DNA of 64,000 bases from Elsinoe ampelina (Eukaryota), in the NCBI GenBank assembly GCA_010093995.1, contig ML992508.1, positions 344,506-408,505 on the forward strand, written 5' to 3'. A model generated the notes under the pieces. The model did no database searches and was not told the DNA's origin. It saw nothing but the letters and a program-made list of their open reading frames with translations. Positions 36,528 to 43,975 of the stretch are shown piece by piece (the stretch's first letter is position 1; every line of letters starts with the position of its first letter). The translations under genes were made by a program, and so were the position numbers.

Positions 36528-37029
36528 AGGTTTATGGTGCCAGCTGCGGCGAAGGTACGACAGGGAGAATACAGTAATAAGAACTGACGGTTCGATGGCC
36601 AGCTATGAAGTTCAGAAGGGAAGCTTACTGTAAGTTGAGAAGGGCTTATCTTGCCAAGGCCGATGATAGCGGCTTGCCGGACACCATTAACTACAGTAAG
36701 TTAATCAAAGACCCCCGCAATCGGGTCAATTCAAGCCAATAAAGGGTCGAGAGCCCCGCGGCGATGCTCGGGGCATTTTTCTGGTCTTGACCACCAACGT
36801 CACTGGACATTTCAGACATGCCGCACAAAGGCATCATCGGGGATAAGCAAGGAACAGGAAGGTCGGCGGCTGCCCCACGCACTTTGCAGCATGCTTTGCA
36901 CATCTGTGAAGTATATTGCTTGACCGTCATGTCTAACTTTTTCACTCCAGGCAGATAAGTAGTGCTTTCCCACTTCAATCCCTCTCATCTCTGCGTCTGT
37001 CCTTTCTGGTCCTGTTCGGTATCGCAGCC

Positions 37030-38775
37030 ATGGTCTTGTTCTCAAGTGGTCGAGTGACTGCACTCGCGTGTCTCCCCTTGTTCGTCAGCAACGTGCTCTC
37101 GGGGCCACTCGACCATGTGGCCTGGCACACCGGCAGGAATGCCACAACATATGGCCGACAGGGTGCTGTGTCGTCCGAGACCGCATTGTGCTCGCAATTG
37201 GGAGCGAAGATCCTGCGAATAGGAGGGAATGCGGCCGATGCCATGGTAGCCAGTGTCTTCTGCACAGGCGTGGTTGGCATGTATCACAGCGGTATAGGAG
37301 GAGGAGGATTCGCAGTTGTCCGCGCCTCCAATGGTACCTACGAGTTCATCGACTTTCGAGAGGCAGCTCCTCTGGCAACGAACGAGACTATCTACGTCGG
37401 GAACGAGCAGGGGAGTCTGACGGGTGGTCTGGCCAGTGGTGTTCCTGGCGAAGTGCGCGGCTTGGAGTACATCCATGACAAGTACGGACGATTGCCGTGG
37501 AAAGACGTGGTTACGCCAGCCGTCAAAGTTGCAAGATACGGCTTTCCAGTCACGGAAGACCTGCTGAGCTATATCGCATCTGCCACAACTGGATCTTCTG
37601 GCAATTTCCTGGTCAATGACCCAAGCTGGGCACTCGACTTTGCCCCGAACGGCACCGTTCTGGGCCTCGGTGAGACTCTCACGCGCAAGAGATACGCCGA
37701 CACACTCGAAACAATCGCAGAAAAGGGAGCAGACGCCTTCTACTCCGGAGCAATCGCCCGCACCCTCATCCGCGCTCTTCGCGCCAGCAACGGCACCATG
37801 ACCGAAGCCGACCTAGCCAACTACACCATCAAATCTCGCACCCCAGCCAAGATCACATACCGCAACTACACCCTCCACTCCTCCTCGGCCCCCGCATCCG
37901 GCACCATCGCCCTCTCCGCCCTCAAGATCCTCGAAGGCTACACCGACGCCGGCCTCCCCTCGGCCATCAACCTCACCACTCACCGCCTAACCGAAGCCTT
38001 CCGCTTCGCCTACGGCCAACGCACCCTCTTCGGCGACCCCCTCATCATCCCCTCCATGGACACCTACCAAACCTCCATCCTCTCCGACCCCGTAACCTCC
38101 GCAATCCGCTCCCGCATCTCCGACGCCCGCACCCAAAACGTCTCGTACTACGACCCCGCCGGCCTCGAAATCCTCGACACACCAGGCACCTCACACCTCG
38201 TGACCGCCGACTCGTCGGGCCTAGCCCTCAGCCTCACCACCACCGTCAACCTGCTCTTCGGCAGCAAACTCCTGATCCCGGAGACCGGCATCGTCATGAA
38301 CAACGAGATGAACGACTTCTCCATCCCCGGCGTGCGCAACGCCTTCGGCTTCGAGCCCAGTCCGAATAACTACGTCCGTCCCGGCGCCAGGCCGGTGAGT
38401 TCCATCTCGCCCATCATCGCCGAGGACGCGAATGGGGATCTGGTCTTCCTCACTGGCGCCGCGGGCGGGAGCAGGATCATCACCGCGTCGGCGTTGCAGG
38501 TGTGGAATGTGCTGGACAGGGGCATGACGGCGCAGGAGGCGTTGGCTGAGAAGAGGTTGCATGATCAGTTGGTGCCGGATCAGACGAGTATGGAGGAGGG
38601 GTATGATGCGGGGGTTGTCGAGTTCATGAGGGGGAGAGGGCATAATGTGAGTATTCCCGGTACGGCGGGGACGAGTTCCGCGCAGAGTATTAGGGTGGAT
38701 AGGACGAGGGGGATGGCGTTGTTTGAGGTGGGAAGTGAGCCGAGACAGGCGAATAGTGGGGGTTTTGTGGTGTGA
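37030..38775 (+). CDS. Gamma-glutamyltranspeptidase (glutathione hydrolase), secretory
   Basis: GGNAADA, HSGIGGGGF, IDFREAAP, GVPGEVRGL, catalytic GTSHL, TTTVNLLFGS, NNEMNDFS, RPVSSISP, GAAGGSRI and RLHDQL. Confidence 0.95.
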   Translation: MVLFSSGRVTALACLPLFVSNVLSGPLDHVAWHTGRNATTYGRQGAVSSETALCSQLGAKILRIGGNAADAMVASVFCTGVVGMYHSGIGGGGFAVVRASNGTYEFIDFREAAPLATNETIYVGNEQGSLTGGLASGVPGEVRGLEYIHDKYGRLPWKDVVTPAVKVARYGFPVTEDLLSYIASATTGSSGNFLVNDPSWALDFAPNGTVLGLGETLTRKRYADTLETIAEKGADAFYSGAIARTLIRALRASNGTMTEADLANYTIKSRTPAKITYRNYTLHSSSAPASGTIALSALKILEGYTDAGLPSAINLTTHRLTEAFRFAYGQRTLFGDPLIIPSMDTYQTSILSDPVTSAIRSRISDARTQNVSYYDPAGLEILDTPGTSHLVTADSSGLALSLTTTVNLLFGSKLLIPETGIVMNNEMNDFSIPGVRNAFGFEPSPNNYVRPGARPVSSISPIIAEDANGDLVFLTGAAGGSRIITASALQVWNVLDRGMTAQEALAEKRLHDQLVPDQTSMEEGYDAGVVEFMRGRGHNVSIPGTAGTSSAQSIRVDRTRGMALFEVGSEPRQANSGGFVV

Positions 38776-38962
38776 AAGCGTGGTAGTATCAATCAATTCA
38801 TCTCATGATCAGAGGTTAGAATGTCTTGGTTTTATGATTTTCGTATTCTCGATTGGGTATTATTGTACAAGAATGCTTCGCCGTCTCCAGGCCTCTGTTG
38901 CCTGATTGTGATCTATCAAAACATCCATCGTCTTTCGCCTGGCATCACCGCATGGCTACCAA

Positions 38963-41027
38963 CTACGAGCCGTTGCTAGCGGGCTCCTGTTTGATGAGAT
39001 CACCCAGCTTCTCACGAGCGACGGGAACCACCTGAGCACTGCCATTCGTGAAGGCTTCCAGCTCGAGATACTCCTTTGCCGCAGTCAATATGTCTCCGCG
39101 CTCAGTGAGCCACTCCATGTACTTCTCGGTGAGCTTGTTAAGCTGCACCTTGCTCACTTTGCCGCCGGCCCTCAAATCCTGGTAGATGGCCTTCACTCGC
39201 TCGCGGTACTTCGGCAGGTACTCCTCTGGCACAGCGAGGTGCTGCTCGAAGTCGAACCAGTAATGCCAGAACGTCTCCGAGTCGGCAGCCTCAACCTTGT
39301 ACTTCTGGAATACTTCGAGCGCACGCAAGGCATCGTTCTTAGACTGGTATACCAGGTGAGCCAACGCTGATATCAGCATACCGCGTGTCGCTGCGCTGAT
39401 CTGAGGATCTTTGAGATAGTGATGGTAGATACCGATTGCTGCCTCGACGCCGAATGTACGCAAGGTAAGATTAGCCAGGCAGTTGACAGTGTTGGGATAA
39501 TCCGGCCTAGCGAGGAGGACGCCCTGGTAGATCTCGGCGGCAACATGAGGGCGGCCCTGTGCTTCCTCAAACAAGGCCCACTTGTGACGGATCTGCGGCA
39601 GCGCCACAGGGAGGTAGTAGCAAGAAGCACGCTGATAGATGTTTCGGGTCTCCTCAACCTTGTCCTCTTTCGTATTCATCCAGCGTGCGTAGCGAAACCA
39701 GAAGTCGGCATAGTGGGCGCAAATGACAACGCAGCGTTCGTACAGGAAGGTGATGCGATGGAAGTCCCCTTCGGCCTCCTCAAAGTCCAGGTACTTGTGC
39801 CAGTTGGAGATCTGCGCCTCATCAAGATCGGTGACGTGAAAGTAAAGGCGCTTGATCTCGGCTTCGTACGTCCAGCGCTTGTTGACCTCGTCCTGCGTAC
39901 GTTTAAAGCTCTCGTAGTTGATCTGGTCCAGCTTTGAGCGCATATCGCGCTCAACGTCGGCTTGGGTACCGTTGTTGATCTGAACTAGACGATAGCTGTC
40001 CTGACTCAGGCGTGCGATGACTTCCTCGGATGCAAGAGCGTTGATGGGCATCTGTGCGGACATGGCACGATACTTCTCGTAATAGCGTGCGTACTGATGC
40101 ATAGGAATCTTGACGACACGAGAGAGGATCGCAAAGACGTTGGCTGACTGACCAAGGCGTTCCTCAAAGTCAATGTATTTGTCCCAGAATGGATGAGCGA
40201 GAAAATCCAGACCAACACACTCGGCTCCACGCTCAAAGAGTCTGCGATGTTGTCAGTGTGGTCCCAAAAGGTAGGGATGACGGATTGGTGAGGGGTTGGA
40301 GAGACGGGAAATTTACGAAGAGCAGCGGTGAAAATAGTTTGGCAGAGGTTGTGTGTCCCTCGCCCAGGGTGGTTTAGCAGAGGCTGTGTCATCCTCGCTT
40401 TGGCCACTCGTCCGATGCAACAAAAACTCAGAAGGTGCTTTGTGTTAGAGATGGAAACGGTCATCTCAAGTCGCGCCGATCACGGTCTGCGTCTGGAGTT
40501 GGACTTGGTTTGATGATGTGGAAAAGGTATCTTGTCGTAACTCACTCTCTCTGCACCTCGCTGTCATGGCTGGTCTCAAGCACGAAACTGCAGTAGTTGG
40601 TCCACAGATCGACGGAACAAGCGACGCTGGCGATGCCGCGCTCATAGATCTTTGAGTGAGAGTCAGTGGCAGTTTCATCAAAAGTTGGTGGGCCACTCAC
40701 AAAGGTGGCAGATTCGGGGCCAGCGAGGGAGAATTCGAGGTCGGCGTATTTCTTCCAGAAGCCAAAGAAGAGCGGGAACTTTGCCAAGAAGCGATTGTAG
40801 ACATCGCGAGCAGCATCAATGGCCTGTGGGCTTGAGTTGCGATGAAGGCCGCCTTCGAGGTCTTCGACCTGACGGACCAGCTTCTCCCAGTTTTCGTAAT
40901 TGTCAGGGTCGGCGAGCTGGAACGTATGTTAGAACCGGTCAACAACAACGAAAGCAGATACATTACTGACCACTTCCTTGTTGGCCGCATTCAGGTCGGG
41001 GAAATCGCTGTAGTTGATGTCTGCCAT
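38963..41027 (-). CDS. PRP39: U1 snRNP HAT-repeat splicing factor Prp39, 4 exons
   Basis: MADINYSDF..., LADPDNYENWEKLV..LEGGLHRNSSPQAI, FPLFFGFWKKYADLEF, YERGIASVACSVDLWTNYC, LFERGAECVGLDFLAHPFWDKYIDFEER and RWTYEAEIKRLYFHVTDLD..WHKYLDFEE. Introns at ~40917-40973, ~40651-40700 and 40242-40545. Confidence 0.93.
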
Positions 41028-41771
41028 TTTTGCGGCGACTGGCCCTCGGCGGGGCTGAAGCAGAGATGAATCACTTCAGGTGAGAGCTGTCGCAAATCGC
41101 TGCGCAAGTTTTCACGGCTCTGTAAGCTGTCAATATGTATTGCGCAAGGTCAAAAACACAACGCGAGGCGTGGCAGCAATGGCAGCGAGCGGACGATTTG
41201 TTGCGCCGTAAATGAAGGAGCAAACGGGTTCTGTTTTGAAGATGATGAAGACGAATCTAGAAAAGCGTTGTCGCAGGGAGGAAGAGCTCGGAGCTCGGCC
41301 GAATTTTGCTGAGCAGGTCTAGCCGAGGCGCGATTCAGCATCTTGTGGCAATTCTTGCCGAATTTGCCACCAGGCAAGCAACGTGACACTGGGGACTTCG
41401 TTTTCACAACTGCTTCCTATCCTGGTTTGATCAATGCATGCAATCATCCAGCTACGATAGATGCTATCGCCGCAAAACAAAATGCGCCCGCCAACATCCG
41501 TGCTCAAATTGCAGGAAGGCCAATCTTACTCAACGCACATACATTGATCGAACCAAGGAAAGAAATGTCTGCATAGATGTCGTTGATGATCTTGAGAGAC
41601 GATCGAGCAAAGGATGTGGATCTTTAATCCATATAGATGCGGCTGCTCACATTCGAAAGCATCCATCAAAGAGGTAGCCTGGGACATCATCTCTACACAC
41701 AATTTCCCCTCCCACAAAGGTCATGACATCTCAAGATCGCTCTGCTCTCGCAAGCGCTGATCTAGCATTCC

Positions 41772-43022
41772 TCACGTTCTACTGCCCTGCACCTTCTCCC
41801 CCCTGACATACCTCACCGTATCCCCCGCCGCAAAACTAAACGGACTAGTCCCCATATCCGGACTCCTCGGACTGATAGGTAGCGCAAACAAGTCATCCTC
41901 CCTCTCCTCCTCCCGCTCCTCTCTGCCCTTGAAGCCCGTCTGCCCGCTCGTGATGGCGTTGAGACTCCCTTGCCCCACAGCTTTCTGTTGCCTTACTACC
42001 TCCTCGGGTGGCCGTTGGGGGGCGAATTTTCTTTGACCTTGGGGTAGGGGTTGTGACAATGACGAGTGGGGTTGAGGTGCTTTGGCGCCGAGGATGGATG
42101 GGTCGGGTACGCCTTTGAGGGTCGCGAAGCTGCCGAAGGAGCTCACGGCTACGTCGCTTTGTTCGGGGCTCAGGGGGTTGAGGTCGTCTTGGAGATGTGT
42201 CTCGTCGCTTCTTTCGTCGCTGTGGGTATTTGATGTGTTCAGCTTCAGGCCTTTGAGCTTGTCCATTAGTCGGCCTCCGCCTGGGCTTCGCGGGCTGGCG
42301 GGGCTGCGGAGGCCGCCGTCGAGCGTGGCTAGGCTGGCTCGGTGGTCATTCTGTTGCGTTGGCCGTGTGGTCACGCCAAAGTGTGTCTCGATCCAATCCC
42401 GCTCTTGAATGGCCATTTGTAATGCTATGCCTTCTACGTTGGTCTGCGACTCGTCATTGATTTCTCGTGCGAGGACTTGGAGGCGTCTCTTGGCCCAGAT
42501 GGTGTGCAGGACGCCCTTTTTGCCGGATGTGCTGGCTGATGCGCCAAGTGATGGGGGAAAGATGGCGGGCAGAGGATTGACTTTCCACGTCACGCCGGTG
42601 GTGGTCTTGTCGTCGCTGGGTGTGAGCGTGAGCCAGACGGTGCCAGGAACGCGCTCCCCTTCAGGGAGGAGGAAGTAGAGACGGTTGATGCTGCCGTCGT
42701 CGCGGCTGGAGGTGCCGGAGGAGGGCAGGACGGTGCGTTTACCTTCCCATGTTACGGCCCAGGTGCCTGGTATGGAGCGGGTTGTGGTGTCTTCTTCCCA
42801 TTCGACCATGAGAACCTTTGTGCAGTCTCTTGTCCGACCGGATTCATATTCGAAGCGGGCGAGGGCATTGGATGTGCTGGTGCTATTGGGGCCTGGTGAG
42901 CTGGTGGGAGCGTCATTGCTAGGCGATGTCGTGGCCGTGAAGAGAGACGTGGTGGGCGTTGGTGTAGGAGGGGTAGGTTTTGTAGTAGAGGGAGTTTGGG
43001 TAGCTGGGGAAGTCGATGTCAT
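41772..43022 (-). CDS. Conserved-looking fungal hypothetical protein
   Basis: Long intronless ORF with LARFEYE..TKVLMVEWEED, PLPAIFPP.LG..GKKGVLHTIWAKRRLQVL and DLFALPISPRSPDM.SPFSF. Likely start is MTSTSP at 43022. Confidence 0.75.
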   Translation of the reverse strand: MTSTSPATQTPSTTKPTPPTPTPTTSLFTATTSPSNDAPTSSPGPNSTSTSNALARFEYESGRTRDCTKVLMVEWEEDTTTRSIPGTWAVTWEGKRTVLPSSGTSSRDDGSINRLYFLLPEGERVPGTVWLTLTPSDDKTTTGVTWKVNPLPAIFPPSLGASASTSGKKGVLHTIWAKRRLQVLAREINDESQTNVEGIALQMAIQERDWIETHFGVTTRPTQQNDHRASLATLDGGLRSPASPRSPGGGRLMDKLKGLKLNTSNTHSDERSDETHLQDDLNPLSPEQSDVAVSSFGSFATLKGVPDPSILGAKAPQPHSSLSQPLPQGQRKFAPQRPPEEVVRQQKAVGQGSLNAITSGQTGFKGREEREEEREDDLFALPISPRSPDMGTSPFSFAAGDTVRYVRGEKVQGSRT

Positions 43023-43975
43023 GATGAACGCTGGATGCTGTGATGTTGGTGAACTGGTGCGAGCACAATGCGGTTGGAACTGTGTCCAAGGCTGGCGGTG
43101 AAGAAACTGGGCTAAAGCTATGTACAAGAAGCCAATGTCGTACTATATCGCAGTCCGGTGGGGATGCGTCGTCGCTATGTCGTCGCCATGACCTTGTGCT
43201 CCGGATGGCGGAGAGTCGATATCGATACGAGACGATGGCAACGGGAAAGGATCGAAGACAGTCGGTCGTTCTTCAGAGCTGATGAGCTCTATCTCCCCTG
43301 TTTTCAGTTGTCAGCTCGTGCAAGAAGCAACACTCTCCGTGGCCGGGTCGTCAGCCATGATCTGCGACGGACTCGTCTTGGTTCAGGCCCATTTTAGACT
43401 CGTCAAATGTCCGCTACCCGGAATGGTGCCATCTAGGTGGCGGCGACCAGGGTGAATCGGGCGGTAGCGCAGAGCAAGAGCTCCGCTGCGAGTTTCATAC
43501 CTTTCAGCTCTAATTTCTTCACTTCTTCTCCTGATAATTTAGCTGCTGCAACAAGACTGGACCAATCTCAGCCTTACACGAGGGGGCAGATGCTTGACAC
43601 CTTGACCAACAACGGACGACTCACGAAAATGATTGCTCTCTGCTACTCGATGGTAAATACATACGGTTCAACCTGACCTAGTCAGCGTCTTCACACGATG
43701 AGAGCGCCCCCGTCGGATTCTCGGCTTGACAATACAATTACCAAGTATGGCGAGCGCATTGTCGATGCCCATGTGAAATCACAATGAGAGTCAGACACGG
43801 TGTCCCAGCAAGCGCAATATGGCTCACCATGTTTAGAAGCTGTGGAAGCATGCCTGCCTTCTCAAAGGGACAACAGCTTATGTTCACACGATGTTCTTTC
43901 TAGCTTATGATAAGTCTTTCTCTCTTTACTACGCGCTCCCAGTTGCCTATCCTTCTTGACATCGAGCTCTCAACC

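Follow-up and report, generated by a model that had tools for sequence, protein, structure and literature searches.

A PRP39 gene with a long third intron

The sequence analysed here is a 64,000-nt stretch of the fungus Elsinoe ampelina (assembly GCA_010093995.1, contig ML992508.1, positions 344,506 to 408,505 of the forward strand), which we refer to in its full length as the window, and our subject is the long third intron of a minus-strand gene that, to judge from its sequence, is PRP39. Pfam searches with the last exon of this gene returned HAT_PRP39_C (PF23241; 2.6e-54) and HAT_PRP39_N (PF23240; 2e-25), such that the N- and C-terminal HAT-repeat domains of the PRP39/PRPF39 family are both present in the window protein; the same exon matched the structures of mouse PRPF39 (PDB 6g70; 3.2e-39) and yeast Prp39 (PDB 5zwn_U; 2.5e-25). 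The nearest database protein is the PRP39 of Elsinoe batatas (Dothideomycetes, Myriangiales), which is 551 amino acids long and 94% identical. The productive gene model has three introns, of 54, 51 and 304 nt, and the parts of it that matter here are as follows.

38963-41027, minus strand: PRP39 gene from start to stop codon; four coding exons and 551 amino acids in the productive form
40546-40649, minus strand: coding exon 3, ending in phase 2 (...AGA GA); RNA joints 40649/40701 and 40486/40546
38963-40241, minus strand: last coding exon (exon 4), 425 amino acids plus the stop codon, holding most of the HAT repeats

An earlier reading of this DNA, made from the letters alone (the sequence-only reading), had singled out the third intron as oversized and had placed a putative poison cassette exon inside it. 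The intron itself is confirmed in the sequence, running GTGAGT...CAG over 304 nt at 40545..40242 of the minus strand. Its removal yields the conserved protein, since the consensus of an alignment of 22 Pezizomycotina PRP39 proteins (...SHDxDxIRELFERGA...) runs straight through the exon 3/exon 4 junction. The yardstick for "oversized", namely that introns of the window are mostly ~45-110 nt long, was checked on the RNA-supported short introns of this gene (51, 54, 59 and 75 nt) and on intron 2 of its relatives (median 51 nt), for which it holds. The motifs from which the cassette had been assembled, CTAAC (40448-40444), AAG (40440-40438), GTAAAT (40316-40311) and TGA (40430-40428), all lie where they had been placed; motifs this short, taken alone, are what chance would supply within 304 nt.

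RNA contigs contain a 170-nt cassette exon with a premature stop

We aligned Logan contigs from four public runs belonging to three studies (X1, X2, X3 and X7) to positions 38800-41300 of the window. Contigs were used instead of raw reads, so that abundance is known only roughly and rare forms are dropped. None of the four runs is on record as RNA, and their origin was judged by spliced joints: the gene's other two introns, of 51 and 54 nt, are spliced out in contigs of all four runs, and we therefore take these contigs to be derived from complementary DNA (cDNA). All splice joints read CT..AC on the plus strand, which is GT..AG on the strand of the gene.

Two joints fall inside the long intron. 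One removes 75 nt (40241/40317) and the other 59 nt (40486/40546), and a single 2114-nt contig (X3 record 9) spans all five exons. Because RNA joints flank the 170-nt segment at 40317-40486 on both sides, this segment is an exon. We are thus highly confident that the "304-nt intron" is two short introns of 59 and 75 nt around a 170-nt exon that carries a premature stop. We number the short introns 3a and 3c, keeping 3b for an inner intron of related species that is described below.

40487-40545, minus strand: mini-intron 3a, 59 nt, GTGAGT...GCAG; joint 40486/40546 in three of the four runs (X1, X3 and X7)
40317-40486, minus strand: cassette (poison) exon, 170 nt, within spliced contigs of all four runs
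40480-40482, minus strand: premature stop codon TGA, the third codon past the exon 3 junction, from the sequence together with the RNA junctions
40311-40316, minus strand: weak donor GTAAAT of mini-intron 3c; joint 40241/40317 in all four runs
40242-40316, minus strand: mini-intron 3c, 75 nt; branch CTGAC (40256-40252), acceptor CAG

The donor of mini-intron 3a doubles as the donor of the productive 304-nt splice, and its acceptor in use is the AG at 40488-40487. With the cassette included, the frame reads GA/A CCG TGA (the slash marks the junction), such that only two codons of it would be translated before the stop, which lies upstream of the last exon junction (40317/40241) by 163 nt; the cassette length is in any case not a multiple of 3. 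The sequence-only reading had therefore been exact about the internal donor GTAAAT and the 75-nt intron downstream of it, and wrong about the other end of the exon. The acceptor that would start the exon at 40437 forms a joint in none of the four runs, although it may have some minor use; the true acceptor lies 49 nt away. The 121-nt cassette at 40317-40437 is replaced by one of 170 nt, and the in-frame stop is the TGA at 40482-40480 rather than that at 40428-40430. The broader proposal of a poison cassette in an oversized PRP39 intron is borne out by the RNA contigs and by the conserved splice signals described below, with one boundary and the stop misplaced.

Other forms are present in the same data. 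Mini-intron 3c is also retained, in unspliced contigs of X1 (record 2, depth 60.6) and X7 (record 12, depth 2.4). A further joint, 40241/40546, skips the whole 304 nt and occurs in one contig each of X1 and X7. From depth sums and unitig length we infer that this record is the direct exon 3-exon 4 junction, and hence the productive form: no partly fitting record is listed among the aligned contigs; the depth of the skipping record falls, in both runs, only on 40212-40241 and 40546-40573; and these 30 plus 28 nt are what is expected of a 31-mer unitig over a direct junction of exons 3 and 4, given that AC stands at the start of the cassette as well as of exon 4. The shared AC also accounts for the exon 3 contigs of X1, X2 and X7 beginning two letters before 40546. 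The skipped form is the conserved coding form of the 22-protein consensus. Contig depth is a poor measure of abundance, and we claim no ratio from it; by this measure, inclusion and skipping are of the same order in X1 (116.8 for the skipping contig versus 96.8-105.5 for the inclusion contigs) and in X7 (6.8 versus 3.9-4.6).

The contigs of X2, X3 and X7 differ from the window by three single bases (38905 A>G, 39365 C>T and 39819 T>C on the plus strand), and those of X1 do not, which looks like strain variation.

The long intron recurs throughout related fungi

The sequence-only reading had asked for the orthologous intron to be compared across Pezizomycotina, and both the long intron and its internal splice signals do recur there. 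By scanning metagenome contigs with a PRP39 protein alignment, we collected 80 fungal loci with 43-61% identity in the best aligned segment. In 73 of them, an intron of 309-518 nt lies at the same codon and in the same phase (...IRE / LFERG); counting the window, the intron is 304-518 nt long in 74 of 74 placed cases. Of the seven other loci, five come from contigs ending within such an intron, with its blocks showing, and one starts within exon 4. The last (L037, 1-600) is a contig of RNA type: its exon 3 runs directly into exon 4, and yet it still contains the short intron 2. Intron 2 of the same genes has a median length of 51 nt (n=65, seven of these lacking intron 2).

The nearest named relatives of these loci, at 61-99.8% identity over the last exon, include Aureobasidium and other Dothideomycetes, Chaetothyriales, Eurotiales, several Lecanoromycetes, a Leotiomycete and a Sordariomycete, and thus represent the Dothideomycetes, Eurotiomycetes, Lecanoromycetes, Leotiomycetes and Sordariomycetes. 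We looked up the class for five of the relative names, and the remaining ones presumably belong where we have placed them. On this comparison of sequences, conservation of the long-intron unit is very probably real.

The conserved blocks of the intron are splice signals

To describe what is conserved inside the intron, we aligned 60 distinct introns with MAFFT. The intron bodies, including the body of the exon, do not align, and the conserved blocks are all splice signals. All 60 introns have GTAAGT or GTGAGT as their outer donor. It is followed after some 25-35 nt by a pyrimidine run, CCCATAAC-like branch sequences and then CAG, which together correspond to mini-intron 3a. The next block, ..GA..G/GTGAGA, is an inner donor found in 55 of the 60 (GTGAGA in 43, GTGAGG in 8, GTGAGC in 3 and GTGTGG in 1); a branch block, TTCTCAC, lies 35-45 nt beyond it (TCTCAC in 44/60), with a YAG acceptor a dozen bases further on. 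These signals delimit an inner intron, 3b, which begins about 87-220 nt into the long intron and is mostly 45-69 nt long in the relatives (median 55). Its branch is kept as CTCAC, a non-consensus form, rather than the usual CTRAC.

Downstream of 3b comes a variable stretch of about 90-190 nt (exon b), and then a weak donor, which we found in 55 of the 60 introns (GTTTGC in 19, GTATTT in 18, GTTTGG in 4 and other sequences in 14; none in 5). This donor is never GTAAGT or GTGAGT among the 60 introns, and in the window it is GTAAAT. The 3c of the relatives, which follows, is pyrimidine-rich, about 65-101 nt long and ends in AG, with the outer branch NCTRAY in 60/60. That 3b is a working intron is shown by an Aureobasidium-like contig that lacks intron 2 (L030): it is missing exactly the 56-nt GTGAGA...TCAG segment that is present in L004 and L003, and 3b has thus really been spliced in vivo in this case.

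The window species has no such inner donor, and two segments of the cassette align with the blocks of 3b.

40471-40477, minus strand: GGCGCGA, aligned with the inner donor block GGTGAGA of the relatives; the donor has decayed
40444-40450, minus strand: CTCTAAC, aligned with the TTCTCAC branch block of 3b and containing the CTAAC motif of the sequence-only reading

The CTAAC that had been put forward as the branch site of the cassette thus aligns instead with the branch block of the inner intron of relatives. CTCTAAC is followed by CTGAG (AG at 40428-40427), which aligns with their acceptor TCAG, and no RNA joint falls at these relics in the four runs. By this alignment, the window species has lost inner intron 3b, of which branch and acceptor relics remain; what the relatives divide into exon a, intron 3b and exon b is, after decay of the inner donor, one 170-nt exon here. 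The L011 group likewise lacks a donor at the aligned position, and L071 is not alignable there.

Two RNA structures around the inner donor were considered and rejected. A hairpin showing the inner donor GGTGAGA in its loop is plausible by eye in single folds; in controls with 52 sequences, flank complementarity had a mean z of +0.17 against shuffles and was -5.89 versus -5.89 kcal/mol in the cross-species comparison. The inner donor GTGAGA is also the exact reverse complement of the branch block TCTCAC (e.g. L021:3674-3758). Pairing between the two was no stronger within species than across them, however (-10.98 versus -11.00; permutation p=0.54, 49 sequences), and since there is no covariation, the complementarity is explained by two conserved motifs.

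On the practical side, the public gene models of PRP39 in Aureobasidium are inconsistent at the long intron, with lengths of 545, 580, 627 and 635 amino acids. Compared with an Aureobasidium pullulans-like locus (L009), the 545-amino-acid models (P0087 and P0082) remove the long intron cleanly, that of 580 (P0076) continues in frame across the weak donor and takes in the final 105 nt of the intron, and those of 627 and 635 (P0081 and P0088) read still more of it, the GGTGAGA block included. In 56 short database proteins, the N-terminal extensions might have been vestiges of cassette transcripts; the examples that we inspected by eye look like read-through of the genomic intron, and we discarded the set as uninformative.

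Unproductive splicing as a candidate control of PRP39 dosage

The pre-mRNA is spliced in two ways: either 304 nt are removed, giving the 551-amino-acid protein, or two introns of a size normal for fungi (59 and 75 nt) are removed and the 170-nt exon is kept. The stop-containing mRNA has an exon junction downstream of the stop and a 3' untranslated part longer than 1.4 kb, two features that typically set off nonsense-mediated mRNA decay (NMD). We propose, with a probability of roughly 0.6, that the third intron of PRP39 works as a unit for regulated unproductive splicing, which would control the dosage of PRP39 by NMD with feedback from PRP39 itself. The exon-containing mRNA would be an NMD target, or else the source of a fragment of only 128 amino acids, and inclusion of the cassette would lower PRP39 output in either case.

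The unit combines a strong outer donor and outer branch and acceptor with a conserved weak last donor inside, and this arrangement suggests how feedback might operate. Knockdown of human PRPF39 is reported to lower the use of weak 5' splice sites (PMC9808567), and because PRP39/PRPF39 helps the U1 small nuclear ribonucleoprotein (snRNP) at such sites, the weak inner donor should gain when PRP39 activity is high. With ample PRP39, U1 would engage the donor of 3c, the short introns would be removed singly and the poison exon would be kept; with scarce PRP39, only the strong outer donor and branch/acceptor would be used, and the long splice would produce coding mRNA. The net result would be negative feedback on the level of PRP39, a U1 factor. 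Dependence of the isoform ratio on PRP39 is thus suggested by the conserved weak donor taken together with what is reported on PRPF39 at weak 5' splice sites, and we hold the exact direction of the feedback with less confidence than the existence of a regulated unit.

Several observations weigh against this proposal. The poison form seems to be at least as abundant as the productive form, and in X2 and X3 the contigs contain the inclusion path only. Such a pattern is out of the ordinary for a transcript that NMD removes efficiently. The joint on which the productive form rests is labelled "skips 304, 170 letters between" in the alignment, and the legend explains this as other letters lying within the record. 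RNA support for splicing of 3a and 3c comes from this species only, and that for 3b from L030 only; moreover, L030 retains the parts equivalent to 3a and 3c, which a simple cassette model does not predict. Lastly, the predicted cassettes of the relatives add nothing, since a stop or frameshift results from 46 of the 48 units of exons a and b, which is about the chance expectation, and predicted 3a acceptors are unreliable, as the same rule picks an intron of 42 nt for the window, where the true one is 59 nt.

Alternative explanations

One alternative is that the long intron is removed stepwise, with an inner intron leaving first in the manner of nested or twin introns, so that the short introns make for its efficient removal and the exon-containing mRNAs are side products. 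Nested spliceosomal introns have been described in Pezizomycotina, and L030 has lost 3b while the outer parts persist, as stepwise removal would have it. In the window species, however, the junction left after splicing of 3a and 3c (GA/ACCGTG in X3 record 9) contains no GT, and as neither cassette junction restores a splice site, the cassette cannot leave later. In addition, the inner intron interrupts no outer donor, branch or acceptor, and a species without the inner donor still keeps both the long intron and the two isoforms. We therefore consider stepwise removal unlikely.

A second alternative is splicing noise: a spliceosome accustomed to short introns might remove the long one poorly and use cryptic inner sites, in which case the cassette form would be waste. 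Such a view would accommodate the partly spliced forms that coexist with the others (3c retained in X1 and X7, 3a and 3c kept in L030, intron 2 kept in L037), as well as an inclusion form that is abundant rather than rare. It leaves unexplained why the intron measures 304-518 nt in all 74 placed cases while intron 2 has a median of 51 nt. Furthermore, cryptic sites should drift, whereas the inner donor, branch and acceptor, and specifically a weak donor, are kept over five classes. Noise as the whole explanation thus seems to us improbable as well, and slightly more so.

It is also conceivable, though we judge it slightly more doubtful still, that the inclusion mRNA is translated and that the resulting 128-amino-acid N-terminal HAT fragment has a role of its own, for example as a dominant-negative protein. 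The inclusion form is abundant, and in the mouse, the mRNA with the PRPF39 exon is described as a weak NMD target, with a truncated dominant-negative protein discussed (PMC6582350). Against such a role, the cassette is not conserved in sequence outside its splice signals. The stop falls two codons into the exon here, and the exon boundaries and stop positions of the relatives are predictions.

The sequence-only reading had offered an intronic small nucleolar RNA (snoRNA) as its own alternative. The length of the intron might then be due to a non-coding RNA inside it, such as a C/D-box or H/ACA snoRNA, and this we regard as very improbable indeed. What speaks for it are imperfect C/D-box-like strings in the sequence. 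These strings are not conserved among relatives while the splice signals are, the 304 nt fold no more stably than shuffled sequences (z -0.45), and mRNA contigs contain the segment as a spliced exon. Rfam searches of the intron region at E up to 10 returned no match within the intron (an sR46 match at E=4.6, on the opposite strand and inside exon 4, was set aside as chance), and at the gathering score there was none across the whole window and none in 14 related loci.

Relation to known systems

Animals and plants are well known for poison exons in the genes of their splicing factors, and alternative splicing in filamentous fungi is mostly regarded as intron retention or noise. The fungal PRP39 unit is a poison exon of a splicing-factor gene, with an unusual build and a depth of conservation that is unusual for fungi. 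Our literature search, outside the scope of which lay subscription-only papers, found no published fungal PRP39 poison exon and no published deeply conserved homeostatic poison exon in fungi. For Neurospora, prp39 mRNA is reported as one of the spliceosomal transcripts whose level rises on exosome knockdown, and the passages that mention prp39 in that paper are silent on isoforms (PMC4549623).

The closest parallel is mammalian PRPF39 itself, for which the sequence-only reading had mentioned an NMD-inducing exon. Such an exon, stop-containing, alternative and conserved between mouse and human, is indeed reported, and is described as a weak NMD target (De Bortoli et al., 2019; PMC6582350). The two cases share an orthologous kind of gene, encoding a U1-associated HAT-repeat factor in organisms without Prp42, and in both a cassette with a premature stop is present at an easily detectable level in a region conserved among relatives. 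They differ in that the mammalian exon and its flanks are conserved as sequence, whereas only splice signals are conserved in the fungi, and in that as many as three short introns, together with two short exons that are non-coding, make up the fungal unit. NMD sensitivity has been shown for the exon in mouse and human, and would be expected of the fungal mRNA from its structure.

The factors that are spliced unproductively for homeostasis also include U1-70K and U1C. Homeostatic unproductive splicing is documented for splicing regulators such as SR proteins and heterogeneous nuclear ribonucleoproteins (hnRNPs) (Lareau 2007 and Ni 2007, as cited in PMC9808567), and the fungal unit resembles the genes of SR proteins, hnRNPs, U1-70K/U1C and SMNDC1 in having a stop-containing alternative exon in a splicing-factor gene. 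As in those genes, use of the exon would hinge on the activity of the encoded machinery, with PRP39 being the factor that presumably feeds back in the fungi. For SMNDC1, RNA sequencing is described as too thin to find or exclude such isoforms in other model organisms, fungi included (PMC11357089), and that paper therefore records no class-spanning fungal example.

The stwintrons of Pezizomycotina offer a parallel of another kind, since they are introns within introns in filamentous ascomycetes, and L030 shows an inner intron removed first. As stwintrons are described, however, the inner intron interrupts the outer donor, branch or acceptor and must go first. In PRP39, 3b lies in the middle of the intron, the outer signals are intact without it, and in the window species the outer intron works although 3b is missing.

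A wider reading, which is tentative and which we think somewhat more likely to be wrong than right, is that PRP39 of Pezizomycotina carries an ancient sensor of U1 snRNP activity, present in at least five classes and independent in origin from the mammalian exon, for which a long intron is divided into as many as three short introns of normal size and a pair of non-coding mini-exons. The capacity for 5' splice site recognition would then be read out as one long splice, which is productive, against several short ones, which give the poison form, and this readout would be served by outer sites that are strong, inner sites kept weak on purpose and an inner donor that is again strong. Whether or not the unit acts as a sensor, it provides an RNA-supported, class-spanning case in a core U1 factor, with the conserved parts being the signals to mutate, such that U1 snRNP homeostasis in fungi becomes directly testable in easy genetic systems, among them Aspergillus, Neurospora and Aureobasidium. 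It also offers a natural case in which the splicing of short introns competes with that of a long one.

Neighbouring genes and annotations

In many Aspergillus genomes and some others, the annotation unites PRP39 and a PRP28-type DEAD-box helicase in single proteins of 1314-1424 amino acids (P0001-P0012 and P0025), which are either merged neighbouring genes or a real fusion. In the window, PRP39 is flanked by an open reading frame of 612 amino acids downstream, on the opposite strand (36937-38775, plus strand), and by one of 456 amino acids upstream, on the same strand (41772-43142, minus strand), which is rich in Ser, Pro and Thr.

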